A stretch of 32,000 nucleotides of DNA from Candidatus Lokiarchaeum ossiferum (GCA_025839675.1 CP104013.1:5970001-6002000); one strand, 5' to 3'. Shown: positions 5,078 to 26,900, counted from the first letter of the stretch. Notes: a model not told the origin generated them from the sequence alone. Numbers and translations are program-made.

Positions 5078-6982
5078 CTAAAATAAAAATATATTTTGAT
5101 GGTCAATTTCAATGTCCGAAAGATATTTTACCTCCATTTTTATTATTTTTCCATCGACAATCTCGATATTTCGATACGCTCCGCTTTTTTCTGAGGATGA
5201 CAATTTTCGAATTCCCAGCGAAGGTGTTTGACAAACTAGGGGTAAATGATCCAAAATGAATTCCATGGGATACAATGAAGTATAATCATCATAATAGATT
5301 GAAAAAGGTTGACTTCGCCCCAGATCTTGAGGGGAATAAGAAAATCGAATTTCATTAGCTTCATGAGTATGCCCTGCTAAATTTATCATGTTATATTTTA
5401 ACATCAAAGCAAGAGTATTTTTCCAATTTCTACTAACCGACCCGTAATCGAATTCCAAATGCGGATCTGCTCTACCATTAGAAGTTCTTAACCTTTTTAA
5501 ATTGCGTTCCTTGAACATTGAAGGATGTAAATATTTCATTTTTTTAAAAATTTTGAGAAATTTTCTCAAAACGATATTTTTTATTATCGGGTTTAGCATC
5601 GGGCTGTGAGTCATAAAAAAATTATTTGTTTTCCCATCTTCTTTCATAATTCGTGAGGTAACAGTCTTCATAAATAAATATTGCCTATCAGAAAACCCTT
5701 TCGACGCAGGATTGGCCATCAAGAGGTCTTTCATTCTCAAGATTCGCTCACCCCGTGAATTCATCAACAAAAATCTATTTTTCCCAAATTCTATAAAGTA
5801 ATCATCAAAAGGATTTACATATTGATAATAGGGTCGGAGGCAATATTTATCAACGGCTAAGGCCTTGTAGTTCGCTCTTGGATATGGATCTTTGAAAGTC
5901 TGTGCCTCCAATAAATGGAGTCCGAAAGTCCGATAAAGTCCTGCAGTATGCAATGAGTAGGGATATATCCGAACATCATGATTTCCTGTAATCGTATAGA
6001 ACGGCACTGCTAACTCTTCATGTTCGACAATATTTTTTGCGGCAATCCCTTCTCGTAATTCGATCGGATCATTCAAAATTAAATTTAGAAATGTTTCCCA
6101 ATTGGATTCCGTTATTTTATATAGTTCCTTGCTCCGAATTGTGTTCTTAAGATAATAATCGATGATATCACCTGTCATGAAAATAACATCTAATTTCTCT
6201 AAACTTGCGCGATAATTGGCCCAGAGTATGAATTGTCGTAATTTATTATTTGGATTTTTAAAACGCGATTGAAGGTCGAGTTTCTGTATCAAGGGGGGAA
6301 GTTTATCAAAATTGATCTTCAGCTTATGTTTCGATAAAATATCTAAAAATTCATCATATCGCTTTCCAATATGAAGATCGGTGATTTGAATGAATTTTAA
6401 ATTATCCCAAGATTTCTTCCGGATAACTAACGAATGATAACATATTCGGTATATTGGATAATCTTTATGTGTATCTTGAGCTGAAAATGTTTGGTAAATA
6501 TCAAACATCAGAAATGGATGATTTTGTAGAAAAGTGGTGTTTTTTGAATCTTGATGAATCTGAAAAGTCCCGGTTGCAGAAAAAATACAGCGATTTGTCC
6601 CAAAAAAATTATGACGGAGAAGAAAAGATGGACGATCATCTTTCAATTGATAAAGATCTTGTAAACACTCGTTTTCTATACAAAGAGATAAGTTTTGTTT
6701 TATATCAGATAAATTAATGGGAATAGGGTAGCCCCGAATAAGTTTACGGGTTTGAGGATCGTGTTCATAAAGCGGAACCGCAAAAAGCTGATTTTTGAAT
6801 TGGTCTTTTAATTGAGTTAGGCTAATTTCCTCCTTTGCTACTATATTTAATTTGAATTCAAACTTAGGATGCTGGTTTATCGCTTTCTCTTCTATTTTTT
6901 CCACTAATATTGCAGGATACCCAATATTTGGAGAAGCAACAAAAGGAAAATCCATATAATCTTTGAATTCTGCATTCTTCAT
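5078..6982 (-). CDS. Calcineurin-like metallophosphoesterase with a ~190-aa N-terminal domain of unknown function
   Basis: All canonical MPE motifs occur in order: IQITDLHIG (DxH), FMTGDIIDY (GD), TITGNHD (GNHD), FFMTHSP (H), LAGHTHEANE (GHxH). ATG start at 6982. Confidence 0.85.
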   Translation of the reverse strand: MKNAEFKDYMDFPFVASPNIGYPAILVEKIEEKAINQHPKFEFKLNIVAKEEISLTQLKDQFKNQLFAVPLYEHDPQTRKLIRGYPIPINLSDIKQNLSLCIENECLQDLYQLKDDRPSFLLRHNFFGTNRCIFSATGTFQIHQDSKNTTFLQNHPFLMFDIYQTFSAQDTHKDYPIYRICYHSLVIRKKSWDNLKFIQITDLHIGKRYDEFLDILSKHKLKINFDKLPPLIQKLDLQSRFKNPNNKLRQFILWANYRASLEKLDVIFMTGDIIDYYLKNTIRSKELYKITESNWETFLNLILNDPIELREGIAAKNIVEHEELAVPFYTITGNHDVRIYPYSLHTAGLYRTFGLHLLEAQTFKDPYPRANYKALAVDKYCLRPYYQYVNPFDDYFIEFGKNRFLLMNSRGERILRMKDLLMANPASKGFSDRQYLFMKTVTSRIMKEDGKTNNFFMTHSPMLNPIIKNIVLRKFLKIFKKMKYLHPSMFKERNLKRLRTSNGRADPHLEFDYGSVSRNWKNTLALMLKYNMINLAGHTHEANEIRFSYSPQDLGRSQPFSIYYDDYTSLYPMEFILDHLPLVCQTPSLGIRKLSSSEKSGAYRNIEIVDGKIIKMEVKYLSDIEIDHQNIFLF

Positions 6983-7258
6983 TTCTATACCCTCATTGTT
7001 TTAGAAAACTCAATTATGGTAAATTTGAAAGAAATTATCCATGTGATAATAATACATTACCTAAGTTAAATTCACTTTTGCAAAAACTAATTAAAATGAA
7101 ATTAATAGATTGGTTTAGATTCATTAGATAAAAGAGAAATTATCGAAAAGGCAATCTTTTTTTAATTGTTTTGATTCCAATCAAGAAATACAATTTCACT
7201 GTTGAAATTCTTGTTCTTTTTTCCATTAAGATTAAACACTCAAATCCCGTTTAGGTTC

Positions 7259-8023
7259 TTAGACTTTTTTTCCCAATTCACTCTTTTCATTTTGTTTCCA
7301 ATACTCAAAATCATGATCCAAATCGTCCATATAGTGATCAATTGTTTCTGAAGATCCTGCATTGAAAAGTGCTTGAAAATCGTTTAATACTTTCTGATTG
7401 GCTTTTATTTCTTCTATTATCTTTGGAAAATTGAAGGATATTGCTTCTTGCAAAATTTGATCCAAAATTTGAGTTGCTTGAGTATATTGATGGTAGGAGA
7501 TCAGTTCGGGGATTTTTTTAAGTTGTGATTTTATTTCTTTTTGTTTATTCGCCTCTTCTTCGAGTAAATCTTGATGGAGTGCGGTTATAACTTCGATCAA
7601 ATTTTGATCTATAAACTGGCTAATCTTTTTTGAGTATAAATTCTGTTTAAATCTTCGGGTAAGTTGAATCGCTTCTGTCTTTCTGTTTTGTTCAATTAGA
7701 GTTTCAATTTTATCTTTCAATTCTAAAAATTGTACATTTATTGCAGTTTTTTTTGATAGATAAACTAAAGTGGTTGAGTTAAGACTGACATCTTCAAGTC
7801 GAAACTCCTTCTTCACTGTTTTAAGAATTGATGAAGCTTGGTCAAATTTTTTTTCTGAAATCGCTTGATTGATTTCTTCAATCTCCCTATGATGAATATC
7901 CATCAAGTGGTGGATTAGTTCATCTTGTTTGTTAGGAATCCGATCTGCGATCAGTTTCGCCAAAATTATTAATACTGCAAATATGAATATAAAAGTTATT
8001 CCAGATGGCATTTGATTGATCAT
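7259..8023 (-). CDS. Single-pass membrane protein of the 'LDxDFxxW-x7-LGKK' family (TM + cytoplasmic helical-repeat domain + conserved C-terminal peptide)
   Basis: N-terminal TM GITFIFIFAVLIILAKLIA, then a ~220-aa helical region with TPR-like segments (ISEKKFDQASSILKTV; ISYHQYTQATQILDQILQEA). The C-terminus is HYMDDLDHDFEYWKQNEKSELGKKV-stop. It is a paralogue of 25611-26399 and of the C-terminal third of 19727-21421. Confidence 0.75.
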   Translation of the reverse strand: MINQMPSGITFIFIFAVLIILAKLIADRIPNKQDELIHHLMDIHHREIEEINQAISEKKFDQASSILKTVKKEFRLEDVSLNSTTLVYLSKKTAINVQFLELKDKIETLIEQNRKTEAIQLTRRFKQNLYSKKISQFIDQNLIEVITALHQDLLEEEANKQKEIKSQLKKIPELISYHQYTQATQILDQILQEAISFNFPKIIEEIKANQKVLNDFQALFNAGSSETIDHYMDDLDHDFEYWKQNEKSELGKKV

Positions 8024-8181
8024 CTCTTCAAGTGATATATGAAATGACGTTATATAAAATTAGGTATGCATGATATCAATGCTTCTCCATCATTTCTGTT
8101 AGTTTGAACTTTTTTTATCGTAAAATTAATCCATTCGCATTATCACTCAACACTGAATTCCCGTGCACGAATGAAAAAACC

Positions 8182-8189
8182 TTTTTAAT
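8182..8189 (+). promoter_or_regulatory. TATA-like box (TTTTTAAT) ending 23 nt upstream of the ATG at 8212
   Basis: The spacing matches other genes in the window, where a box ends 21-26 nt before the start codon. This is consistent with an archaeal leaderless transcript. Confidence 0.35.
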
Positions 8190-8211
8190 CCCAAACAGAT
8201 TGAAACAAACA

Positions 8212-9006
8212 ATGGAAAAGAAATTCCTCATAACGAACCAACGTGATTATGATCTACACACCATCCATTATTCCCGTTTGGAACAATTCAATCCAACACT
8301 CCCCTTAGTGATCCTTGTTCATGGATACTGCGGGGATAAAGAAAATGCGGGTTATAATAATCCTAATTTTGATAAAGGAAGATACCACAAATTGGCTACT
8401 GCATTATTGGAAGTCGGGTTTGAAGTTCTAGCTTTTGATCTGTCTGGGCAAGGTGAAAACATTCGCGAACCCATTAGAATTTCCCATGCCATCCAAGATT
8501 TAGAGGATGTTTATATCTATGCTCAAAACCTAGGTTATCATACCATTGGAACTGTGGGGTATTCTATGGGGGGATTAGTGTCCCTCCATGCTCGGCTTCC
8601 CGATCGCAAGGTCGCCGTGTTTTGGGCTCCGGCTTTCTATCCTTCTAGAGCGGCCAGTAAATTGAAGCGAAAATTGTATTCTCTCATATTATCCTTGCGA
8701 AGAAAACCAATCAAGGCGGGGGCAAATTTTCAAGATGTGTTAATAGATAAGAAAAGTTTTCAAGAATCGCTCTTGGGAACTCCTGACGTTATGTTGCAAC
8801 AATTTACTATTCCGACCCTAATATTGCAAGGCGATTGTGATCCAACAGTCCAACAAGCATGGACTGAAGAAGCCTTCCATAAAATGCCGCAAGATGCAAA
8901 TCACCGCATAAAGATTATTCCTCGCGCAGAACACCACTTTCATCGGGAAATTTTACAGGAATTTATCACCTTTACTAGAGATTTTTTCCTTAAGCATCTT
9001 AAATAA
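8212..9006 (+). CDS. Alpha/beta-fold hydrolase
   Basis: Nucleophile elbow GYSMGG (GxSxG), oxyanion-region VILVHGYCGDK, and late DCD and HH residues consistent with a Ser-Asp-His triad. The track start at 8104 is TTG. The in-frame ATG (MEKKFLITNQ) at 8212 has a properly spaced TATA-like box. Confidence 0.8.
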   Translation: MEKKFLITNQRDYDLHTIHYSRLEQFNPTLPLVILVHGYCGDKENAGYNNPNFDKGRYHKLATALLEVGFEVLAFDLSGQGENIREPIRISHAIQDLEDVYIYAQNLGYHTIGTVGYSMGGLVSLHARLPDRKVAVFWAPAFYPSRAASKLKRKLYSLILSLRRKPIKAGANFQDVLIDKKSFQESLLGTPDVMLQQFTIPTLILQGDCDPTVQQAWTEEAFHKMPQDANHRIKIIPRAEHHFHREILQEFITFTRDFFLKHLK

Positions 9007-9269
9007 TTTCCTTGGAGATTCTTTTTTTAATTCCAGGAAATCCATCTATTTTTCCGATCTTTTAAGTAAATCCCCAACATAATGAACTTGTCTATTTGTT
9101 CTCCCTAATTTGAAAATATTTTCTGAAACGGTTTAAATTTTCTTCCTTCTGTTTTTTATTTTGATACTCTCTGAAAATAATTATGAAATGTCTCTATTCC
9201 TCTTTTTCCAATTATCCCTCTCGAGTTGTTCACCTCTTCTTCCTTTGTTTTTTTTCGACAGAGTTGAAA

Positions 9270-9277
9270 TTTATATA
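9270..9277 (+). promoter_or_regulatory. TATA box (TTTATATA) ending 23 nt upstream of the ATG at 9300
   Basis: Near-consensus archaeal TATA sequence at leaderless-mRNA distance from the start codon. Confidence 0.45.
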
Positions 9278-9299
9278 CCCTTTTTGTTAATAATAGATC

Positions 9300-17786: not shown

Positions 17787-18117
17787 TTGAGTGAATCGTA
17801 CTTTTTGTAATTTTCACTTTTTTTAGTAATTTATCACCCATTGGCTTTGAATCCCCCATTTTATACCACATTTAATTTTGTCGAGCAAAAGTGGACACGT
17901 TTTTTAGCATTCACAAAATTTCCCGTTTGCTAGGCCAAATTAGTGGATCTTAAATGATCTGATGATGAGCATAAAATCATGCCCAATTTCAAGATTTTAG
18001 ATAATATAAAAACCAAAACAATTTTATTCTTGTTTTCCTTACACTAATATATTCAATATCTGGGGTGCATCAGCTATTCTAATATTCAAATATCGACGAC
18101 GGCCTTCAATATATCAA

Positions 18118-18600
18118 ATGCAGTTACATGATTATATCGGTCTGAAATCAACTCAAATACTTGAAATGTGGATTCCAAAGACATATCGCTATGTATATAA
18201 AAAATTTAAATGGTTTCCATTCAAGCGTCACGCCCGGAAAGCCCCTTCATTGATAGTTTCTAAATCCCAAACACGATTAGAGCATTATATATACGGAAAT
18301 ATTGCACATATTCTTCCCAAACGGAAGTACTTCATGCGATTTCGCAATCTTGGGCAAACAACTTATGATGATTATGCAAAAGGCATACTTCCGCAGTCAG
18401 AGTGGGATATGCTCCACACGCTACCAAAATTTTCAGGATATTTCAATCATATCTTTGAAATGAATGATCTTAGTTACTTTGATAAAATTCAAGATGAATT
18501 GGAGATACAGGGAGTTCATTTCAAAGGAATGTTCCTTCATGATATTATCGCATTTGAACTACTTCGTCGCCGCTTGGATTCAAAGATTATTCAGGTTTAG
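18118..18600 (+). CDS. IS transposase N-terminal ORF (putative DNA-binding part)
   Basis: 160-aa basic ORF ending 5 nt before the catalytic ORF, which is in the -1 frame. The two are separated by TAG plus an A6 run. No motif is recognised. The assignment rests on position only. Confidence 0.5.
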   Translation: MQLHDYIGLKSTQILEMWIPKTYRYVYKKFKWFPFKRHARKAPSLIVSKSQTRLEHYIYGNIAHILPKRKYFMRFRNLGQTTYDDYAKGILPQSEWDMLHTLPKFSGYFNHIFEMNDLSYFDKIQDELEIQGVHFKGMFLHDIIAFELLRRRLDSKIIQV

Positions 18601-18605
18601 AAAAA

Positions 18606-19607
18606 ATGTCATATTTTATTGGTGATAATCCTTTGAAGGGGATTTTACATGATTCTTACTACTTTCCCTCCGCGGATGATATCAGTTATATTATGAATCG
18701 TATCCCTCTTTCCCGAGTCATGGATTATTTTCATAACTTAGTTCGTGAAGCTATTGATCTTAGGATAATCATTCCTAGAATCATGATTTTTGATGGTCAA
18801 TTTGTCAGAACGAACTGTAACAACAATAAAAATTCAAAAACAACAAAGTATAATGATAGTGATGCTGGATATTATCGTCATTCAGGGAAGAAGCTTGGTG
18901 TTGGATTTGTTCATTGGACACTTTATGCGTATTGTGGGAGCTGGAAACGGGCACTTCCAATACATTTTGAGACTTTTCCAGGCAATATGAACGATAAACC
19001 AGCATCCCGCAAAACCTTTACCGCTTTTAATAATCTTAAAATTGGAGAGTGGAAGATGGTGATGGGTGATACAGGTACGTATTGTAAGAAAAGTCTGGAA
19101 TTTTATCAAGATCGGGGCATTTTTCCTTTGCTTCGTGCACCAAAACACCTTAAAACTCATCCAACTCGGGAATTAAAAAAAGGATTTTGGTTTAATTCCG
19201 ATTATTTTCCACCTGGATGGACAGAGCAAGACATATTATTAATGTATGCTCAACGACCTTTAGTTGAAGCAGGTCAATCTGCAAACCCTACATTTTATAA
19301 TCAAAAACGATTAAATACTCGTGGATTGAATATGGCCCACCTTCATCGTACCTTAACATATATACTGGATTTAATGCGAGCAATTACAGCATATAAATTA
19401 GGTAGAACTGACTTATTGACGAAATTAAGTGCATTTTCAACTGGAAGGGAGTTTAAAACAAACTCTATGTGGATTAAACTAGCACGAGATTCAGGTTTTT
19501 GTCAACTTCAAGAGATTGCTTTAAATCCACGACAAAAAGCATTTTGGGATAAACGTCGGAAGTGGGAAGCAGAATTAAGAAAAAAACGAAAAAACGGTAA
19601 ATTTTAA
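18606..19607 (+). CDS. DDE transposase catalytic ORF (IS4-like, Y-x2-R-x3-E signature)
   Basis: Candidate DDE residues are in IMIFDGQFV (D), VMGDTGTYCKK (D) and YAQRPLVEAGQS (Y(2)R(3)E). The C-terminal part is typical of the family: ..LNTRGLNMAHLHRTLTYILDLMRAITAYKLG. Confidence 0.8.
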   Translation: MSYFIGDNPLKGILHDSYYFPSADDISYIMNRIPLSRVMDYFHNLVREAIDLRIIIPRIMIFDGQFVRTNCNNNKNSKTTKYNDSDAGYYRHSGKKLGVGFVHWTLYAYCGSWKRALPIHFETFPGNMNDKPASRKTFTAFNNLKIGEWKMVMGDTGTYCKKSLEFYQDRGIFPLLRAPKHLKTHPTRELKKGFWFNSDYFPPGWTEQDILLMYAQRPLVEAGQSANPTFYNQKRLNTRGLNMAHLHRTLTYILDLMRAITAYKLGRTDLLTKLSAFSTGREFKTNSMWIKLARDSGFCQLQEIALNPRQKAFWDKRRKWEAELRKKRKNGKF

Positions 19608-19726
19608 GTTTTTAAAATTCACTCAATTAGTTTTCTTTTTTTCCGTGTATCATTCAATCTAAAATTTTTATTCCATTTGTTATTTCGGAACACTTATTAA
19701 TACAAATTTATACTAATAAATTAATT

Positions 19727-21421
19727 ATGAAGCGATTCGAAAAAGACATCATTACATTATTCATAAGACGATTTTCTGTCTTTCAGTCTTCCAGAAATGT
19801 TATATTTACATTTCTTTTATTGTTGACCGTCTATCTCTCTACTTTTTCTCAAATTTTTCGAAGTTCTGCTTCCACAGATGATACTCAATATTTTCTAACT
19901 ATAGATGGTAATTCCGAATTAGTTGCCTATTGTTATGGATCGGGCGATGGCACTGCTCAAAATCCTTATATCATCAATGACTATCGAAAAGGATTGCAAA
20001 GTGGATCGGGAATTCACATTAAAAATACTGACAAATACTTAATCCTAAATCACATTTTCATTTATACATCCGAATATACTGGTCTTTCCCCCTACGATGT
20101 AGGATTGAAACTTGAAAATTGTGAAAATGTTCTAATTCAAGAATCTATCCTCGAAAGATTTGATTTGGGAATCATCGTTTCCAATTGCACGTCCATTGAA
20201 ATTAAGAGAACTTATCTTACGAACAATTTCCCCAATCTTCGAGTTGAAGATGGATCCCAAAATATTTCAATTCATGAAAATTATATCAACGGAGGTACCT
20301 TTGGAATTCAATTCTTGAATATCGATCCATCCCATAGCATCGTTTTCAATAATTGTCTGCTTGATATTCAATTCGCGATTGATCTATTTTCATCCTCCGC
20401 CCAAGTCTACAGTAACTATTTTTATAATTGTGCTGAAACCTATCGTCTTTTAGGATCTGGGCATAATACCTTTACTGGTAGCGAAGAAAATTCTATAGAT
20501 AATATTGAAATCTTCCAAGCTCAACTCTATGCAATCGGTTATCAATTCTTTAACAATAATTCCCATTTTCCTCTATCTTATGTTACTAAAACAACATCTA
20601 CTTCCACCACTACAGCTTCTTTAACTAATTCCAATTCTTCTCCATCGAATAATAATGGTGATTTAATGGTCTTCATATTACTTGTTATTTTACTTCTCGC
20701 GTTATTGAGTCTTGTATATTTAAAAAAAATTAACTCCTTGATAAAAAGCAAGAGCATCGATCGCCAATGGAAAGTATTTCAGCATGAATTTCACACCCAA
20801 TTAAATGAACTCCAATCCCTTTATTCCCAGTATCACTATGAAGACGCCTTCAACCTTTATCGAACCTTGGAGTCAAATATCGAGTCCAATCTAATTTCCA
20901 AACTCACCGATTTTCTAGGTTTCACTCAAAAACAGATTTATCTTCATCTTTCTATCATCCAACAAAAGAACCATGTTCAAGAACTGATTAATGCTGCTGA
21001 ATATTCTTATGCCTATCAAACCATTCAGTCATTAATGGAAAAGATCGACCAAAATTCCTCGCCTCTTCAAGATCCTTCCCTTTATCAAGAATTACAAGCT
21101 CAATACAAATTCCTCCAAAATGAAAAAGATCAAACTCATGCTGAATATAGTTCCAAATTATCTGAAATACTTCTGCTTGTCCAAGACCAACAATATGACC
21201 AAGCACTCAACGATTTTGCTCACTTACAGAATAAATTAGAAAAATGGGATTTCACTGATCTCCTTTCTGTTGTAAAAAAACAAGTGCAAACCTTGAGCAA
21301 TTTTCGACAAACTTTTCAATTAGACACAAAGGTGTCTTTAACCTCATATATTGAAGACTTGGATGACGATTTTGAGGAATGGAATACCAATATCGGACTC
21401 CATCTCGGTAAAAAAAAATAG
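19727..21421 (+). CDS. Type-I membrane protein: right-handed beta-helix (NosD/PbH1-like) ectodomain, S/T-rich stalk, TM, cytoplasmic helical-repeat domain and LDxDFxxW-x7-LGKK C-terminus
   Basis: N-terminal hydrophobic segment VIFTFLLLLTVYLSTFSQIF. GDGTAQNPYIINDY is followed by beta-helix turns (IHIKNTDKYLILNHIFI, LKLENCENVLIQESIL, IIVSNCTSIEIKRTYL..). The stalk is TKTTSTSTTTASLTNSNSSPSNNNG and the TM is LMVFILLVILLLALLSLVYL, followed by KKINSLIKSKS (positive-inside). Three helical hairpins (SQYHYEDAFNLYRTL; AAEYSYAYQTIQSL; QDQQYDQALNDFAHL) precede the end ..SYIEDLDDDFEEWNTNIGLHLGKKK-stop. Confidence 0.85.
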   Translation: MKRFEKDIITLFIRRFSVFQSSRNVIFTFLLLLTVYLSTFSQIFRSSASTDDTQYFLTIDGNSELVAYCYGSGDGTAQNPYIINDYRKGLQSGSGIHIKNTDKYLILNHIFIYTSEYTGLSPYDVGLKLENCENVLIQESILERFDLGIIVSNCTSIEIKRTYLTNNFPNLRVEDGSQNISIHENYINGGTFGIQFLNIDPSHSIVFNNCLLDIQFAIDLFSSSAQVYSNYFYNCAETYRLLGSGHNTFTGSEENSIDNIEIFQAQLYAIGYQFFNNNSHFPLSYVTKTTSTSTTTASLTNSNSSPSNNNGDLMVFILLVILLLALLSLVYLKKINSLIKSKSIDRQWKVFQHEFHTQLNELQSLYSQYHYEDAFNLYRTLESNIESNLISKLTDFLGFTQKQIYLHLSIIQQKNHVQELINAAEYSYAYQTIQSLMEKIDQNSSPLQDPSLYQELQAQYKFLQNEKDQTHAEYSSKLSEILLLVQDQQYDQALNDFAHLQNKLEKWDFTDLLSVVKKQVQTLSNFRQTFQLDTKVSLTSYIEDLDDDFEEWNTNIGLHLGKKK

Positions 21422-21600
21422 AAGTATCAAAACCTGAACCTACCACTTCATCTCCCATATAAAGATTATCACTGGCTTTTTTCCGCCCATTGTGAAAATT
21501 TTATAGGGACTACTCAACTCTTTATCCGTGATTTTTTCACAATGGGCGTAAATGAGAATTTTCCATGATGTTCCTTTTCCTATTTTCCGCTTCCTTTGTT
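21422..21600 (+). repeat. Flank-repeat copy C (internally rearranged, contains a 15-bp perfect palindromic pair)
   Basis: CTCCCATATAAAGATTATCACTGGCTTTTTTCCGCCCATTGTGAAAATT matches CTCCTATATAAAGATCGAGGCTGAC.TTTTCCCGCCCATGGTGAAAATT of copies B and D. TTCCATGATGTTCCTTTTCC matches CTCCATGATCCTTTTCCC. The middle segment is replaced. Confidence 0.6.
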
Positions 21601-21747
21601 ATTTTACTCCACGATTAATATTTCTACAAAATCAAAGGAGTTTTTAAATTGTAAATATTTTTTCTTTCAATATTTGGTATTATTGGTGGTTTACTACCGT
21701 CAAATTTATTATTGTTATTCAGTAATATTTAGTTAGGTGAGTTCACT

Positions 21748-24075
21748 GTGAAATTGGTTCACACATATTCCAAAAAGCAGAAAATCAGTTTTATCACTAT
21801 ACTATCGATAATTATTGCATCGGCAATAACAATACCAATTATTCTTCATAATTCCAAAAATTCCATAGAAGATCAAACTCCTCCAAATAAACCTCAAATA
21901 CTTGAATCTCTCTGTTTTACAAATAATTCCGCACTTGATTCCTTTTTTGAGAACTCCAACAAGACAGGGTTAAATGATGAAAATTCTTATCAATTGAAAA
22001 ACCTCGTTTTCAATACTACCGAGAATTACAATCCCCATTACGGTTCTTTTTCTTTTGCCTATAATATTGCTGTATCTTTGACCAATATTACTCGTTTTGT
22101 TAAAATTATTAATTGTACTTTTCAAGGATATTCAGATGCTATCTCTTTAATAAACTCTGAAAATATTGAAGTTTCAAATTGTTCATTTATTCAATGTCTC
22201 GATTCAATTCATATAATTGAATCTAAAAAAATCCAGATCAGAAGCAGTGTTTTTTTCCAATTTTATCAAGCAGTAAAATTATATAATTCTACAGATTGTG
22301 AAATATTTGACAATTATGGGTCGGATGGACAAAATGCAATATCATTGCGCGGAAGTCCATTGAATGAGATCAAAAATAATGAATTTTTCTTAGCTAAATC
22401 AAATAATAAATTACAAAGGGTTTATAGAGGTATTGCTTTATTCGAATCAAATCAAAATTCAATTCTTGATAATACCGTTGGATTACCTGCTGGCTTTCGA
22501 TTACATGGTCTTCGGTTGGAAAGTTCTAATAATAATAATGTATCATACAACTCACTTCTTAATTGTTCGATACTTTTTTTAAAAAGTCAAAATAATTCAA
22601 ATATCTCAAGTAACACATATAACGGTGGTGCTCTCACATATCTAGAAAATCAAAAAGATTTTCAATATCACGACACCTCTGGAAGTTTACTTGTGCTTAA
22701 TAATTGTTCCAATGTGAATATTTCAAGCATTGACTTTATTTCTGATAGTTATGGGGTGGTACTACATAATTGCTCATCTATTAATCTAGATCGTCTCTCA
22801 TTTACTTCTAATTTAAAAAATCAAAAATTTGCATCTGCAATTTGGATAGAAGAATCAAAACAAATCAACATAACCCACTCAAATTTCACTTACCGATTTA
22901 ATGCAATTTTTGCACACTATTCAGATTACTTAAACATGAATAATAATATATTTGATCAATGTGATTCAAGCCTTGAAGCATCTGATGCGACTAGTGTGTA
23001 TTTCTCGAATAATCAAATGGAAAACTCTACATTATTGTTGGATACATATACAAATTTAGCTCTCCTCGAAGATAGATCTCAATTTTACTCAAATAGAATA
23101 AATGGAAAAAATTTAGTATTTCTATTTAATCAATCCAACTTAATTTTTACTGATCCCTTAGATAATTCCACAATATTTGCTTATCATTGCCACAACATTT
23201 CAATCGGAGATTTTTCAGTTGCAAAAACATCAGGTATCTTGCTAAGAAAATGTACTGAAGTTTCTATAAGAAATGTAAATTTCACAGACAACTTTAATTT
23301 TGGAATTTATTTGATGAATTCTGACTATGTAAAGATCGAAAAATCTCGGTTTCAAAATCAGAAGTTTGGCATTTTCACAAATTATGGGACAATAATTAAA
23401 ATCCATGACAATTCCTTCATTTCAAATGGAATCGGGGCATCATTATGTAGTCTTCGCATATTAGAGTTCAATAATAATCTTCTCGAAAGAAATGGGGATG
23501 GTATAAAACTATGGGATATAACTGGTGGGGAATTTTACCACAATGTCGTCTCACACAATTTTAAAAACGGGATAAATACAGCAAATTGTGAGGATATTAA
23601 TATTCAATCCAACGAGATCTCAAATAATGATGCATCTGGCATATTAATTGTAGGAACTGATGATAATTGTTTTATAATTGAAAACATCATTTCCCAAAAT
23701 CAAGAAAACGGAGTTTCTATTTTCAGCTCTCGAGAGATATGCCTTTCAGAAAATATCATCAATATGAATAAATTTTATGGTCTTTTCTTTTCAAATTCAA
23801 TAGAAAATATTGTCTATTTTAATGAAATTCGAAATAATTCCTTGACCTCAATTCGAGAAGATATAAATAATCATACGATCTGGCTCGATGATTCGTTCTA
23901 TCTTGAATCCACTGTGATTATTGCGAATGAGGGAAAATACTCTTACTCTCGGTCTAGATCCATTAGTGGTGGATGGTATAATTTCTTTGAATTTCAAATT
24001 CAGTTTAACTGCGAAACAACAATTGATACCGAACTATATTCAGGAGAGAAAAATACTTATGTTAAAAACACCTAA
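21748..24075 (+). CDS. Large N-terminally anchored right-handed beta-helix (PbH1/NosD-like) surface glycoprotein
   Basis: GTG start. The signal-anchor is ISFITILSIIIASAITIPIIL. More than 20 parallel beta-helix repeat turns follow (e.g. INCTFQGYSDAISLINSENIEVSNCSF.., NGDGIKLWDITGGEFYHNVVSHNFKNGINTANCEDINIQSNEISNNDASGILI). By eye there are about two dozen N-x-S/T sequons. There is no C-terminal TM. Confidence 0.85.
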   Translation: MKLVHTYSKKQKISFITILSIIIASAITIPIILHNSKNSIEDQTPPNKPQILESLCFTNNSALDSFFENSNKTGLNDENSYQLKNLVFNTTENYNPHYGSFSFAYNIAVSLTNITRFVKIINCTFQGYSDAISLINSENIEVSNCSFIQCLDSIHIIESKKIQIRSSVFFQFYQAVKLYNSTDCEIFDNYGSDGQNAISLRGSPLNEIKNNEFFLAKSNNKLQRVYRGIALFESNQNSILDNTVGLPAGFRLHGLRLESSNNNNVSYNSLLNCSILFLKSQNNSNISSNTYNGGALTYLENQKDFQYHDTSGSLLVLNNCSNVNISSIDFISDSYGVVLHNCSSINLDRLSFTSNLKNQKFASAIWIEESKQINITHSNFTYRFNAIFAHYSDYLNMNNNIFDQCDSSLEASDATSVYFSNNQMENSTLLLDTYTNLALLEDRSQFYSNRINGKNLVFLFNQSNLIFTDPLDNSTIFAYHCHNISIGDFSVAKTSGILLRKCTEVSIRNVNFTDNFNFGIYLMNSDYVKIEKSRFQNQKFGIFTNYGTIIKIHDNSFISNGIGASLCSLRILEFNNNLLERNGDGIKLWDITGGEFYHNVVSHNFKNGINTANCEDINIQSNEISNNDASGILIVGTDDNCFIIENIISQNQENGVSIFSSREICLSENIINMNKFYGLFFSNSIENIVYFNEIRNNSLTSIREDINNHTIWLDDSFYLESTVIIANEGKYSYSRSRSISGGWYNFFEFQIQFNCETTIDTELYSGEKNTYVKNT

Positions 24076-25276
24076 AAGAAACTGGATTTCATTCGCCTTT
24101 CTATTAATTATTGTAGGATCTACCATATCAGTAGGGGGTGTTTCCTTTGATAGTACATCTCAGAGAAATAAAGTTATTTCTACAATTATTGCATCATCTG
24201 ACGAATTTATGTTTGATCCACTGATAGAATTTACGGACGAGGGGATTATTTCTGCTTTAGATTTAAAAAACCACTTATTTGGCAATGGAACTGAGCAAGA
24301 TCCGTATATTTTGAAAGATTTAAGTCTGAACATACAGGACTATCGACCTGAGTATGAATTATATATACGCTTTAGTTACTCCAATAAACACGTACGAATT
24401 GAAAATTGCTCTTTTAAGTATAGTTATTCCAGTTATTCATGGCCGGGAGATCCTAGTGGTGGAATTTACATCCATGGAAGTAAGAATGTCCATATTAATA
24501 ATTGTACATTTCTTAAAATGAGTGTTTTCCCAACAGCCATATATAATTCCAGCCATATCATCATTTCGAATTCGTCCTACTACTTGAATGACAATATAGC
24601 TATCACTGTTCTCGGTGGCGATTTCATCAGCGTGTTGAACTCAACATTCAAATCCACTGCTGGTGGAATTAAAATGAAAGATGTAAATAACAGTTACATT
24701 GATGGGAATTCTCTTATCCTTAATCAAAACCCTGGAATTATATTCACTGGAAATTCTAAGAATATTTCTATTTCTCATAATCATATCAAACAGAATACCC
24801 TAGGAATTGTGATATCTGGATCTGAAGAACGATGGTATAGTAACGGGGTCTTAACAAGTGAGACTATTAAATTCGTAGAAAATGTCTCTATTTTCCAAAA
24901 TATTGTCGAATATTCTACACTACAAGGGATTTCGATCTGGAAAACAATTAATTGCTCCATTTGGGGGAATCTGCTTAATAATAATATTGAAAATGGGATC
25001 CTGTTAGATGAAGTTGATAAGGTTCTCGTCCAAGAGAATAATATCTCTCATAATTTAAAGTACGGTGTTAATATTGTCAATTCAACCAATATTAATCTAA
25101 TTGATAATTACTTCACACAAAATGGTATTTCTAATATCTTTGGAAAATATGAGGACTCCCTAAAAACTTCTTCATTCAAATGGGGATATTGGCTCTTCGC
25201 TTCTCTTGGTGTCATTGCTGTCCCAATCTTGATTATTGTAGTGAAAAAATACCAAAATCAAAAAAAAACGATCTAA
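24059..25276 (+). CDS. Right-handed beta-helix surface protein with N-terminal signal/TM and C-terminal TM anchor
   Basis: The ATG at 24059 (MLKTPKRNWISFAFLLIIVG) overlaps the upstream stop by 17 nt and is preceded by GGAG 12 nt upstream. GTEQDPYILKDL is followed by PbH1-like turns (IYIHGSKNVHINNCTF, NPGIIFTGNSKNISISHNHI, ENGILLDEVDKVLVQENNISHNLKYGVNIVNSTNINLIDN). The C-terminal TM is WLFASLGVIAVPILIIVV followed by KKYQNQKK. The track's start at 23921 is read-through in the overlap frame. Confidence 0.8.
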   Translation: MLKTPKRNWISFAFLLIIVGSTISVGGVSFDSTSQRNKVISTIIASSDEFMFDPLIEFTDEGIISALDLKNHLFGNGTEQDPYILKDLSLNIQDYRPEYELYIRFSYSNKHVRIENCSFKYSYSSYSWPGDPSGGIYIHGSKNVHINNCTFLKMSVFPTAIYNSSHIIISNSSYYLNDNIAITVLGGDFISVLNSTFKSTAGGIKMKDVNNSYIDGNSLILNQNPGIIFTGNSKNISISHNHIKQNTLGIVISGSEERWYSNGVLTSETIKFVENVSIFQNIVEYSTLQGISIWKTINCSIWGNLLNNNIENGILLDEVDKVLVQENNISHNLKYGVNIVNSTNINLIDNYFTQNGISNIFGKYEDSLKTSSFKWGYWLFASLGVIAVPILIIVVKKYQNQKKTI

Positions 25277-25582
25277 ATCTTCATGGGTACAAATTTTTTA
25301 AATTCCTTGTTCCCTCAACTCTTCTGGATTAGGAACAAAATAAACCCATCTGTTTTTTACAATTACTTCTATATCTGTTCAAGATACCACCGCTTGTTTT
25401 TGTTATGGCTTTTGCGTAAACGCATTGATGACATGATGATATCTCAACTTCACAGCCATTAACTAATTGTTGTTCAATTTCCCTTCTGCGCTCCTCCTCC
25501 CTCTCCATATGGGTTCTTGTGGATATTATGGAAATGATTGATTTTGGTATAATCCCTTCAGCTATATGACGAAAGCAAAATC

Positions 25583-25590
25583 GATATAAG
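25583..25590 (+). promoter_or_regulatory. TATA-like box (GATATAAG) ending 21 nt upstream of the ATG at 25611
   Basis: Sequence and spacing match the other putative leaderless promoters in the window. Confidence 0.4.
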
Positions 25591-25610
25591 AATCCAAAAA
25601 GTAATTTACA

Positions 25611-26399
25611 ATGAAAAATGAAGCAAGCTATAATCAAGATGGGTTAGTTATATTCCTCTCCCTCTCATCCATTATCCTATGTGTGATGATACTTAGTACA
25701 ATCATCGAAAATCTCAAGAAAAGGCAGACAAAAGAAGAGCTTTGGCAGAAATTTCTACGAAAAAATCAATCTCACTTAATACATGTTCAGGATTTATGCG
25801 ATGCAGGTCATTTTGAGGAATCTAGTAATCTTTACAGATCGGTAAGATCCAAAATCAATCGCTCATGTCTAAAAATCTTGGAAGAACATTTAAAACCCGT
25901 TTTGAAGAAAAATCATCTCAATCTACGTGTAAGTCAAAATTCCACCCAAATTCATGCATTATTAGACGATCAACAATATATTGAAGCATATCGAAAAACT
26001 CAGGTTATTTTGCATGAAATTGAGAATGCAGATGTATCTTTACTTAACAATCCTCAACTAATTATTGAATTAAAATCAATTCACACCGAATTAAAACAAC
26101 AAATTTGTGAAAAACGTCAAGATATTCAAGAAAGAATTAACGCCACCTCCCATTTAATTAAATCACAGCAATACGATCTTCTTATTTGTAAATTTGATGA
26201 ATTACTCCAGGAACTTCAGCAATGGCCCTTTATTGTTCTTAAAAAAGAATTAAATGAACGTTATCAACTCTTTCTTAAATTCCAAAAAACTTTCCAACTA
26301 AATAGAGATGATAGATTAACCAATTTTCTTGAAAAGCTCGATACCGATTTTCAAGATTGGACATCCAAAGAAATAGCCACATTTGGTAAAAAAATATAA
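25611..26399 (+). CDS. Single-pass membrane protein of the LDxDFxxW-x7-LGKK family (short ectodomain, TM, cytoplasmic helical-repeat domain)
   Basis: MKNEASYNQDG, then TM LVIFLSLSSIILCVMILSTII, then ENLKKRQTKEE. The helical hairpins are CDAGHFEESSNLYRSV, DDQQYIEAYRKTQVIL and KSQQYDLLICKFDELL. The end is ..NFLEKLDTDFQDWTSKEIATFGKKI-stop. Confidence 0.8.
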   Translation: MKNEASYNQDGLVIFLSLSSIILCVMILSTIIENLKKRQTKEELWQKFLRKNQSHLIHVQDLCDAGHFEESSNLYRSVRSKINRSCLKILEEHLKPVLKKNHLNLRVSQNSTQIHALLDDQQYIEAYRKTQVILHEIENADVSLLNNPQLIIELKSIHTELKQQICEKRQDIQERINATSHLIKSQQYDLLICKFDELLQELQQWPFIVLKKELNERYQLFLKFQKTFQLNRDDRLTNFLEKLDTDFQDWTSKEIATFGKKI

Positions 26400-26900
26400 A
26401 TTTGCATACATTATCTCATATTCGAAGAGCTGGGAGATAAATTAATTCAAAATAACACGTATTTTTTTCCCATTGGCTTCTTTCCTTCACTCTCGAACTT
26501 ACCATTTTCTCGCTGCTTTTTCCTAATCTATTGCATCTTCTCCTATATAAAGATCGAGGCTGACATTTTCCCGCCCATGGTGAAAATTCCTTTTGCATCC
26601 GCTTAAATTTCCATCCGCCTCTTTTTCGAGGTGATCTTTGAGGAAGATCCTCCAAAATGCCCCTTTTTCTCGTTTTCCGATCAGTTTTCTCTCGCATTCC
26701 ACCCATTTCTTTCCCCTCGGATCTCTCCATGATCCTTTTCCCCTCCTTACATGATCCTCCCTTCAACACTTCTTGCATGATTTTCTTCAATCCCCGATCA
26801 TTTTAGCTCTTCCAATGATCCTTCTCCGCTCATTGTTCCCCCTCCCCTCTCCCCTCCCATTCCCGATCGGTTATCACTTCCCACCAAAATCACAGCCTTT
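26400..26900 (+). repeat. Flank-repeat copy D (longest copy), strongly pyrimidine-rich on the + strand
   Basis: It shares 26421-26480 and 26553-26755 with copy A, 26500-26650 with copy B, and both ends with copy C. It contains the box TATATAAAGATCGAGGCTGAC (26544-26564) and the tract TTCCCCCTCCCCTCTCCCCTCCCATTCCC (26836-26864). Confidence 0.75.

Follow-up and report, generated by a model that had tools for sequence, protein, structure and literature searches.

Why should five loci lying within 19 kb of an archaeal chromosome end in the same short peptide, and what could be its function? This question is raised by a stretch of 32,000 nucleotides from Candidatus Lokiarchaeum ossiferum (GCA_025839675.1, CP104013.1:5970001-6002000), hereafter the window, in which three predicted membrane proteins, here called PA, PB and PC, and two gene fragments share a C-terminal peptide of 25 residues between positions 7,259 and 26,399. 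An initial annotation had suggested that, if the source were an Asgard-type archaeon, the peptide could be a short linear motif coupling surface proteins to a cytoskeletal or membrane-remodelling partner. The source is indeed of that type, as PC has the same sequence as NEF87_005085 of Ca. Lokiarchaeum ossiferum. This species belongs to the few Asgard archaea in culture and is known for its surface protrusions and actin cytoskeleton. We report here that, in the window copies, the 25-mer is the final helix of an all-helical cytoplasmic domain of about 230 residues common to the three single-pass membrane proteins, and we discuss whether this helix could serve in docking or assembly with other proteins. 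The genes and fragments concerned are the following.

7259-8023, minus strand: PA, 254 residues, with a short N-terminus, a transmembrane (TM) helix, a helical cytoplasmic domain of ~228 residues and the terminal 25-mer.
7946-7999, minus strand: predicted TM helix of PA (residues 9-26).
7262-7336, minus strand: terminal 25-mer of PA, HYMDDLDHDFEYWKQNEKSELGKKV.
17038-17210, plus strand: fragment 1, a 3' remnant of ~58 codons with an internal frameshift and stop, its tail DYLEELDDDFEEWTSKKTSKVGKK lacking a stop codon.
17483-17786, plus strand: fragment 2, a 3' remnant of ~100 codons whose reading frame shifts at an A7 run near 17605.
19727-21421, plus strand: PB, 564 residues, starting with a signal/anchor at the N-terminus, followed by an ectodomain of the NosD beta-helix type, a stalk rich in S and T, a TM helix and the helical domain.
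20663-20722, plus strand: predicted TM helix of PB (residues 313-332).
20723-21418, plus strand: cytoplasmic helical domain of PB, its terminal 25-mer at 21344-21418.
25611-26399, plus strand: PC, 262 residues, with a TM helix, then the cytoplasmic helical domain and the 25-mer.
25644-25706, plus strand: predicted TM helix of PC (residues 12-32).
25707-26396, plus strand: cytoplasmic helical domain of PC, its terminal 25-mer at 26322-26396.

The peptides of PB, PC, PA, fragment 1 and fragment 2 translate to YIEDLDDDFEEWNTNIGLHLGKKK, FLEKLDTDFQDWTSKEIATFGKKI, YMDDLDHDFEYWKQNEKSELGKKV, YLEELDDDFEEWTSKKTSKVGKKLE and YIENLDENFTEWNANFTHHLGKKN, respectively, each followed by a stop codon in all but fragment 1. 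L, D, F, W, G, K and K are invariant in the alignment of the five window copies, and the spacer between W and [LFV]GKK is 7 residues in every one of them. The stop codon comes right after GKK plus one residue in four copies; that of fragment 1 (17136-17207) has no stop and runs on as GKKLEYSAYF. Translation thus bore out the five shared ends, the invariant residues, the spacing and the four stops described in the initial annotation, which had only begun each copy one codon late (21347, for instance, encodes Y, the preceding S being at 21344-21346). The strict pattern was matched five times in the six-frame translation of the window and never in 300 shuffles, for an analytic expectation of 8e-7. 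In fragment 2 the last 71 codons form an open reading frame (ORF, 17571-17786) ending AYIENLDENFTEWNANFTHHLGKKN and a stop, which is present in the protein collection as P0009.

The similarity between the copies is wider than 25 residues. PA, PB and PC are homologous across the whole post-TM region of about 230 residues (tblastn E 1e-19 to 1e-32, 18-27% identity), of which the 25-mer is the end. The ectodomain of PB matches Pfam NosD (E 7.6e-6); PA and PC are headless, with a TM helix near the start and no ectodomain. K and R residues number 0 on the N-terminal side of the TM helix and 4 on the C-terminal side in PB, 1 and 6 in PC, and 0 and 2 in PA. Because they favour the C-terminal flank, and because of the ectodomain architecture of PB, the domain and its peptide can be placed in the cytoplasm; relatives that combine an ectodomain with a TM helix, or are soluble TIR, GTPase or WD40 proteins, agree with this placement, already proposed in the initial annotation. 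The proposal of a free-standing short linear motif, on the other hand, did not survive, since the peptide forms part of a folded helical domain, as its final helix, and is joined to the rest by a constant linker.

Conservation peaks in this last helix. In the alignment of the Lokiarchaeum subfamily (Loki-type members), mean pairwise identity in a sliding window of 25 residues is 0.50 for the last 25 and 0.19-0.33 for the rest of the domain. Codons of invariant residues differ synonymously (TTG, CTC, TTA and CTT for L, GGT and GGA for G, GAT and GAC for D), and the conservation therefore lies at the protein level and does not reflect recent gene conversion. The terminal 25-mer is thus under purifying selection at the protein level, in line with the earlier view of selection rather than mere paralogy.

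How far does this ending extend beyond the window? When the domain profile was run exhaustively against 1.84 billion representatives as a hidden Markov model (HMM), no more than 17 matches reached E <= 1e-3, PB being found as P0004. All the close matches (P0004-P0009, from Lokiarchaeum-like genomes and metagenomes) have the motif at the extreme C-terminus, in beta-helix, DUF285/BspA or headless architectures. The ortholog of PA in a second Lokiarchaeum genome is P0002. More Loki-type members are an ortholog of PB (48% identical, 566 residues) on the syntenic contig L001 at 6527-8227, an SBBP-propeller protein of 916 residues at locus L129, and a member at locus L128. In about 75 kb of Lokiarchaeum DNA, at least seven family members and four remnants were counted. 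The distant matches (P0010, P0013-P0017) align via several helical repeats and end in LD(S/R/N)QFxEWxxxExxKxGK(I/V). They contain an insert of about 46 residues, KxKIDDxxxxLxMxRxxLxxLxxxWxxxLxGFKIDGDYL, precisely where the last repeat helix would otherwise meet the tail (alignment A5); this winged-helix (WH) segment is missing from the three proteins of the window in the same alignment.

Alignment A5 is too diverse for the design of a DNA pattern, and metagenomes were scanned with a pattern encoding L[DN]xxFx[DE]WxxxExxxxGK. At least 120 stretches matched, in two classes. Among the matches listed, the first class is the true family, with a WH and the tail, a stop mostly 1-2 residues past GK and a GC content from 28% to 59%. 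Its membrane proteins combine a Fn3-like, PKD or propeller ectodomain with a TM helix, a Zn-ribbon with a TM helix, or a TM helix with a TIR domain; its soluble carriers are Gtr1/RagA/Arf-like GTPases and TPR, WD40 and LRR proteins. About 9 of the ~22 WH-plus-tail proteins recovered are soluble, so that the peptide is not tied to surface or TM proteins as had been supposed. Nor is it always C-terminal in these proteins: the end usually lies 1-2 residues from the stop, but several members extend 6-294 residues beyond G-K. In P0015-P0017, P0019, L016 and L012 an acidic-aromatic extension (EDFNMDDFEI, EDFDF, EDFDTGY), predicted to be disordered by AlphaFold 2 (AF2), follows G-K-I; it may be a second short motif. 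In the relative at L057, the tail is directly followed by a winged helix that Pfam recognises as genuine PCI (E 1e-8). RadA and FEN1 of archaeal type are encoded on the same contig, and P0013 is annotated as Promethearchaeota.

A HMM of the winged helix alone, run over the fetched loci, gave four members that the tail pattern had not selected, namely three L030 paralogs and a Lokiarchaeum LamG protein (L128) whose tail reads LDLQFEEWDKKSFKKEGKI before the stop. L-D-x2-[FY]-x2-W is kept in all four and G-K in one; L030b, L030d and P0018 have no G-K and retain L-D-x2-F-x2-W. Altogether, the core h-x2-[YF]-h-x2-L-D-x2-F-x2-W (h, hydrophobic) was found near the C-terminus after helical repeats in the 5 window copies, in 7 more Lokiarchaeum-type members and in about 22 members of the winged-helix type. 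In the longer form h-x2-[YF]-h-x2-L-D-x2-F-x2-W-x8-G-K, this core is common to the two subfamilies, which share less than 25% identity elsewhere. Numbering from the leucine, its robust part consists of h at -7, [YF] at -4, h at -3, L0, D+1, F+4 and W+7, and E+11 and G+16-K+17 are frequent without being universal. The helix is acidic on its N-terminal side and basic on its C-terminal side, with a net charge of -1 to -7 in Lokiarchaeum. Only the Lokiarchaeum subfamily has the strongly acidic face and ends in hydrophobic-G-K-K-x; in the wider family the ending is LDKQFxEW...GK[IV], with a mostly polar residue before G. The acidic face and the WH2-like GKK of the initial annotation thus stand for the Lokiarchaeum proteins and not for the wider family.

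The second class of metagenome matches, about half of those listed, is a marine family with a triple FDVEFNEWAEQEMMSHGK repeat, which was set aside as an apparently unrelated by-product of the degenerate pattern. It comprises about 68 ORFs on L009-L127 (e.g. L060, L033, L029 and L082), from TARA and other marine sources. These proteins are very large, with AESFEA-like linkers, Zn-ribbons, a repeated unit FDVEFNEWAEQEMMSHGK-DISFKDWAEDEGMKHG-...ITEWAQHEDESHDARYGAE and a C-terminal TM anchor. Searches of word-indexed proteins (using the Loki-type profile, alignment A3 of WH plus tail and the 19-sequence alignment A7) returned nearly only self-hits and missed known members, and they consequently say little about distribution. 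Two scans of a collection of species-representative genomes, from which the source genome seems absent or masked, gave unconfirmed matches only, and a scan of viral contigs with the tail DNA pattern gave a single candidate match.

Two loci of relatives deserve description in their own right. At L030 (LAZR01002578.1, 120-9522), a Ras-family GTPase lies together with four TPR/LRR paralogs, each ending in WH and tail, and a further TPR protein; a weak UFC1-like E2 (E 2e-4) adjoins this cluster, which could be a self-contained system around the module. At L077 (4288-6135 and 11022-13676), a TM+TIR+WH+tail protein has as neighbours a fourfold TIR protein and one similar to RelA/SpoT, a defence-island-like context for this one member of the family.

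We propose that the terminal helix could be a protein-protein assembly or docking helix. Binding to another protein, and the nature of the partner, are what we infer, and we would give this reading an even chance. The same helix ends proteins whose N-terminal parts are unrelated, comprising beta-helix, DUF285/BspA, LamG, PKD, Fn3-like or propeller ectodomains with a TM helix as well as TIR, GTPase, LRR, WD40 and TPR proteins, and because of this distribution a shared handle is the most parsimonious interpretation. The residues at -7, -4, -3, 0, +4 and +7 form the hydrophobic face of an amphipathic helix, closed by a cap at Gly+16 and followed by Lys and 1-2 further residues. In the Lokiarchaeum subfamily the helix comes after three TPR-like repeats via a fixed turn of 8 residues, and in the wider family the winged helix is inserted at this place. 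Its partners could be the corresponding helices or modules of fellow family members, with which it would form bundles, or else a single hub in the cytoplasm; in either case such a handle would bring together many surface and signalling proteins by their cytoplasmic ends. The persistence of the tail through deep divergence, gain or loss of the winged helix and shuffling of the N-terminal parts, together with its near-constant distance to the C-terminus, would favour docking. So would the conservation peak at the tail with its synonymous variation, the retention of the core in members detected by their winged helix alone, the presence of several paralogs in each genome, and the non-significant fold matches to PCI subunits described below.

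The predicted structures are compatible with this proposal. The AF2 model of PC is all-helical, and the motif forms a helix (residues 236-258) that ends just before G259, with a predicted local distance difference test (pLDDT) score of 68-77 vs more than 90 for the core. In the model of P0016, the winged helix (strand-helix-helix-strand-strand) has a pLDDT of 81-94 and the motif helix (residues 111-131) one of 61-76, the extra acidic tail being disordered. Gly+16 comes directly after the predicted helix end in PC and 2-3 residues after it in P0016. Elements that a partner stabilises are often predicted with less confidence than the core.

Several observations nevertheless weigh against docking. 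The lower pLDDT may reflect only the shallowness of the alignments behind the models (8-9 sequences), and the invariance seen in metagenomes is partly built in, the DNA pattern itself having imposed L, F, W, E, G and K. The gene neighbourhoods of five relatives revealed no recurrent partner gene. Likeness to the PCI fold, the known assembly module that comes nearest, is weak (E >= 0.04), and the Pfam PCI model is blind to the winged helix of the module. Finally, the linker before the terminal helix has 8 residues in all Loki-type members, and the preceding helices bear co-conserved aromatics (W-x-F and F-x3-F; F177, F194 and F198 are invariant in alignment A2), a pattern that fits purely intramolecular packing as well.

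The last two points lead to the best-surviving alternative, namely that the helix is a structural cap only, whose hydrophobic face closes the core of its own domain with no partner-binding role. A linker kept constant across paralogs only 20-27% identical and aromatics conserved on the two preceding helices are what one would expect of such a cap. The helix is, moreover, predicted as a regular one with moderate AF2 confidence, Gly+16 lies at its end or within 3 residues of it, and the acidic-N/basic-C charge pattern would stabilise it. However, a cap leaves unexplained the polar D+1, the residue at +11 that is mostly E, the G-K at fixed distance and the near-fixed distance to the C-terminus. 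The helix also outlasts the deletion or insertion of the whole adjoining winged-helix domain, and the tail exceeds every core repeat in conservation whereas its pLDDT is below that of the core. We thus consider a purely structural role unlikely, though it deserves serious attention.

Docking could also be imagined in a more elaborate form, in which Asgard archaea would assemble a membrane-proximal multi-subunit scaffold through lateral winged-helix contacts and the bundling of C-terminal helices. Surface adhesins and receptors as well as TIR, Rag/Arf-like GTPase, LRR, WD40 and TPR proteins would then be its subunits, interchangeable and numbering in the dozens, which the same helix would connect to one hub. 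This idea, drawn by analogy with the PCI complexes discussed below, is speculative and rather improbable at this stage.

The linear motif initially proposed, which would dock surface proteins to the cytoskeleton or the membrane-remodelling machinery by binding Lokiactin in a WH2-like manner or the MIT domain of Vps4 in a MIM1-like manner, is more doubtful still and would at best be a special case. The source is L. ossiferum, the peptide is C-terminal and cytoplasmic, L-x3-F-x2-W has the MIM1 spacing, the window copies end in hydrophobic-G-K-K, and PCI-like winged helices are found on membrane proteins in archaeal ESCRT loci (PMC10936438). Yet a hydrophobic residue preceding G, and a second K, occur in the Lokiarchaeum subfamily only, x-G-K-[IVL] being the rule in the wider family; LKK[TV] is broken by G, and both the Arg of MIM1 and the Snf7 fold are absent. 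The same tail is borne by soluble GTPase, TIR, WD40, LRR and TPR proteins, and no actin or ESCRT gene was linked to the family in any locus inspected.

One could also see in G-K, placed at a fixed distance from W and usually 1-2 residues before the stop, a regulatory end-signal, that is, a C-terminal degron or a Lys modification site controlling turnover, to which the UFC1-like E2 near the L030 cluster might be related. This we regard as very improbable: several members run on well past G-K, L030b, L030d and P0018 dispense with it while keeping the remainder of the core, and no protease or ligase is linked in the Lokiarchaeum loci. Recent paralogy or gene conversion without selection, or mere chance, for which one could invoke five copies in 19 kb of a region rich in insertion sequence (IS) elements and rearrangements, is refuted by the negligible expectation, by an overall identity of 18-27% vs ~50% in the tail, by synonymous variation and by the retention of the motif in distant metagenomic relatives of very different GC content.

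The surroundings of the five copies contain the following further features.

13981-15498, minus strand: IS110-family transposase (Pfam Transposase_20 and DEDD_Tnp_IS110), not found in the other strain.
18118-19607, plus strand: DDE transposase split into two ORFs, 18118-18600 and 18606-19607, downstream of fragment 2 and upstream of PB.
26494-26776, plus strand: repeated intergenic element starting ~95 nucleotides past the PC stop, with other copies at 12583-12811 and 17309-17461.

Both fragments reach upstream via frameshifts (tblastn) and sit between the IS110 and the split DDE transposases, the former marking the decayed region that holds them. In the second Lokiarchaeum genome (CP163304.1, loci L128 and L129), the flanks are 89-95% identical to the window. 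Fragment 1 is present in both strains and has about 78% DNA identity to the 3' end and flank of the gene for P0005 in the other strain. Its ortholog there, in L128, ends LDKKL, with D in place of G, and this change of GKK to DKK is a sign of decay. A window segment of about 8 kb (17276-25316), which contains fragment 2, the DDE transposase, PB and two beta-helix genes, is missing from the other strain. The latter carries P0005 and the LamG protein between the PC ortholog and an acetyl-CoA synthetase gene (L128 9806-12798), and this LamG-ectodomain protein bears the full WH-plus-tail module. The comparison of the two strains thus reveals a reciprocal difference in gene content, at a hotspot where genes for surface proteins turn over.

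Copies of the intergenic element are about 150-290 nucleotides long and 76-87% identical, and they also occur in the other strain (L128 6198-6413 and 12799-13027). They border the segments that differ between strains and lie ~95-100 nucleotides downstream of two family tails, the 17309-17461 copy coming ~100 nucleotides after fragment 1. The element could be similar to a miniature inverted-repeat transposable element or represent a recombination hotspot; an Rfam search of the window gave no matches, this element included.

Other observations concern the genes around the family members. The PC ortholog P0003 (229 residues, L128 8883-9667) is shortened by a frameshift, either a sequencing error or a very recent event, and its tail FLEKLDTKFQDWSSKETSALGKKL, followed by a stop, is intact in the next frame. 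Upstream of PC, two beta-helix (NosD/Beta_helix) surface-protein ORFs (21748-24075 and 23921-25276) overlap by 155 nucleotides, and the second ends in a TM helix and a short basic tail just before the headless PC. The closest relative of PC in L001 is a single beta-helix+TM+domain protein of 556 residues (P0006), which suggests gene fission or fusion at this place. On the minus strand, 16288-16920 encodes a protein of 210 residues that Pfam does not match, with a TM helix at its N-terminus and an ectodomain rich in beta structure; it directly adjoins the family remnant in both strains (L128 7589-8221). Lastly, the 3' end and flank (10675-10963) of the gene for a LVIVD/TSP3 surface protein (9300-10928) are duplicated at 12802-13091, about 2.1 kb downstream, with 74-85% identity.

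What would be the interest of such a module? It is new, in that this cytoplasmic module is uncatalogued, neither Pfam nor NCBIfam having a model of it and none of its relatives a solved structure, and its most conserved part is a terminal helix that spans unrelated ectodomains and, in relatives, signalling domains. If the docking handle proved true, it would offer an entry point to a hub beneath the Asgard cell envelope. The scaffold, if real, would be a prokaryotic forerunner of the organisation of eukaryotic signalosomes and adaptors, possibly kin to the ancestor of the lid, CSN and eIF3 scaffolds. A structural cap only would still leave a new domain family, of ordinary interest.

Comparison with known families supports the statement of the initial annotation that no named domain or sorting signal is involved. 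Neither the domain nor the module is covered by a Pfam model (window proteins, relatives and 19 module winged helices searched), the domain has no match in NCBIfam, and we found no account of the motif in the literature. PDB sequence searches returned only spurious hits, de novo designed helical proteins included. A PGF-CTERM/PEP-CTERM signal was rejected since no hydrophobic helix comes after the motif: the following residues are hydrophilic (NTNIGLHLGKKK and similar) and end 1 residue past GKK, and the sole TM helix lies about 230 residues upstream. The net charge of the Lokiarchaeum helices rules out a membrane-binding amphipathic helix, and the PIP-box, LIR and HbYX motifs were discarded on spacing.

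With the MIM1, LD and WH2 docking helices, the peptide shares a C-terminal amphipathic helix, an i/i+4/i+7 spacing and, in the Lokiarchaeum copies, an acidic face, but it is bound to a folded domain by a fixed turn instead of lying in a disordered tail. MIM1, with the consensus (D/E)xxLxxRLxxL(K/R), is located at the C-terminus of Snf7-fold proteins and binds the MIT domain. Here the spacing fits, but there is no Arg, the residues are L, F and W, and no Snf7 domain is matched; in the paxillin LD motif (LDxLLxxL), positions +3/+4 are L-L where the peptide has D/N/Q and F. The resemblance to MIM1 and LD previously noticed is thus one of spacing, the consensus residues of both being absent. As for WH2/thymosin, its contiguous LKK[TV] is interrupted by Gly in [LFV]-G-K-K.

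A parallel can be drawn with TPR alpha-solenoids, as the PC model consists entirely of helical hairpins, its best PDB matches are LGN, kinesin light chain and alpha-SNAP, and TPR_19 is weakly matched. However, all these fold matches are non-significant (E > 0.3, TM-score ~0.2), and there is no 34-residue TPR signature. Another parallel concerns ArnB, whose C-terminal domain ArnB_C provides, in the archaellum regulatory network of Sulfolobus, a cytoplasmic interaction surface binding the FHA protein ArnA (PMC6509490). Against the ArnB_C model (PF18677, cutoff 26.3 bits), PA scores 16.9 bits (E 0.006) and the best of 9 Loki-type members has an E of 0.0013; only the distant relative P0012 passes the cutoff, with 37.4 bits. 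The likeness resides in a helical repeat of ~65 residues with a QQYDQA helix and not in the terminal peptide, and unlike ArnB the window proteins lack a vWA or beta-sandwich domain, nor is a gene for an FHA protein or a kinase linked to theirs.

The closest comparison is with PCI scaffolds. In PCI complexes the C-terminal helices of the subunits bundle and thereby drive assembly, and it is a mechanism of this kind that we would favour for the module. The wider family resembles CSN8, Rpn12 and eIF3 in its order of helical-hairpin repeats, winged helix and C-terminal helix, and the top Foldseek matches of the P0016 module model are the PCI subunits CSN8, Rpn12, eIF3 and CSN2, at non-significant values (E 0.04-0.3, TM-score 0.3-0.4). 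With the Pfam PCI model (PF01399, cutoff 22 bits), no window protein is matched, P0012 gives an E of 0.023, and one of the relatives' 19 winged helices gives an E of 0.095. The role of PCI domains in oligomerisation has been summarised, and Asgard ESCRT-related proteins with HTH/PCI domains have been described, as have membrane kinases, encoded in ESCRT loci of archaea, that end in PCI-like winged helices (PMC10936438); these winged helices are a context for the module and not its identity. The carriers described here are anchored in the membrane or act in signalling and are not subunits of the lid, CSN or eIF3, the window proteins are devoid of the winged helix, and L-D-x2-F-x2-W-x8-G-K is no PCI feature. 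By its sequence, the module appears to be a hitherto undescribed archaeal one, chiefly Asgard, which has the layout of PCI scaffolds without being a member of the PCI family.

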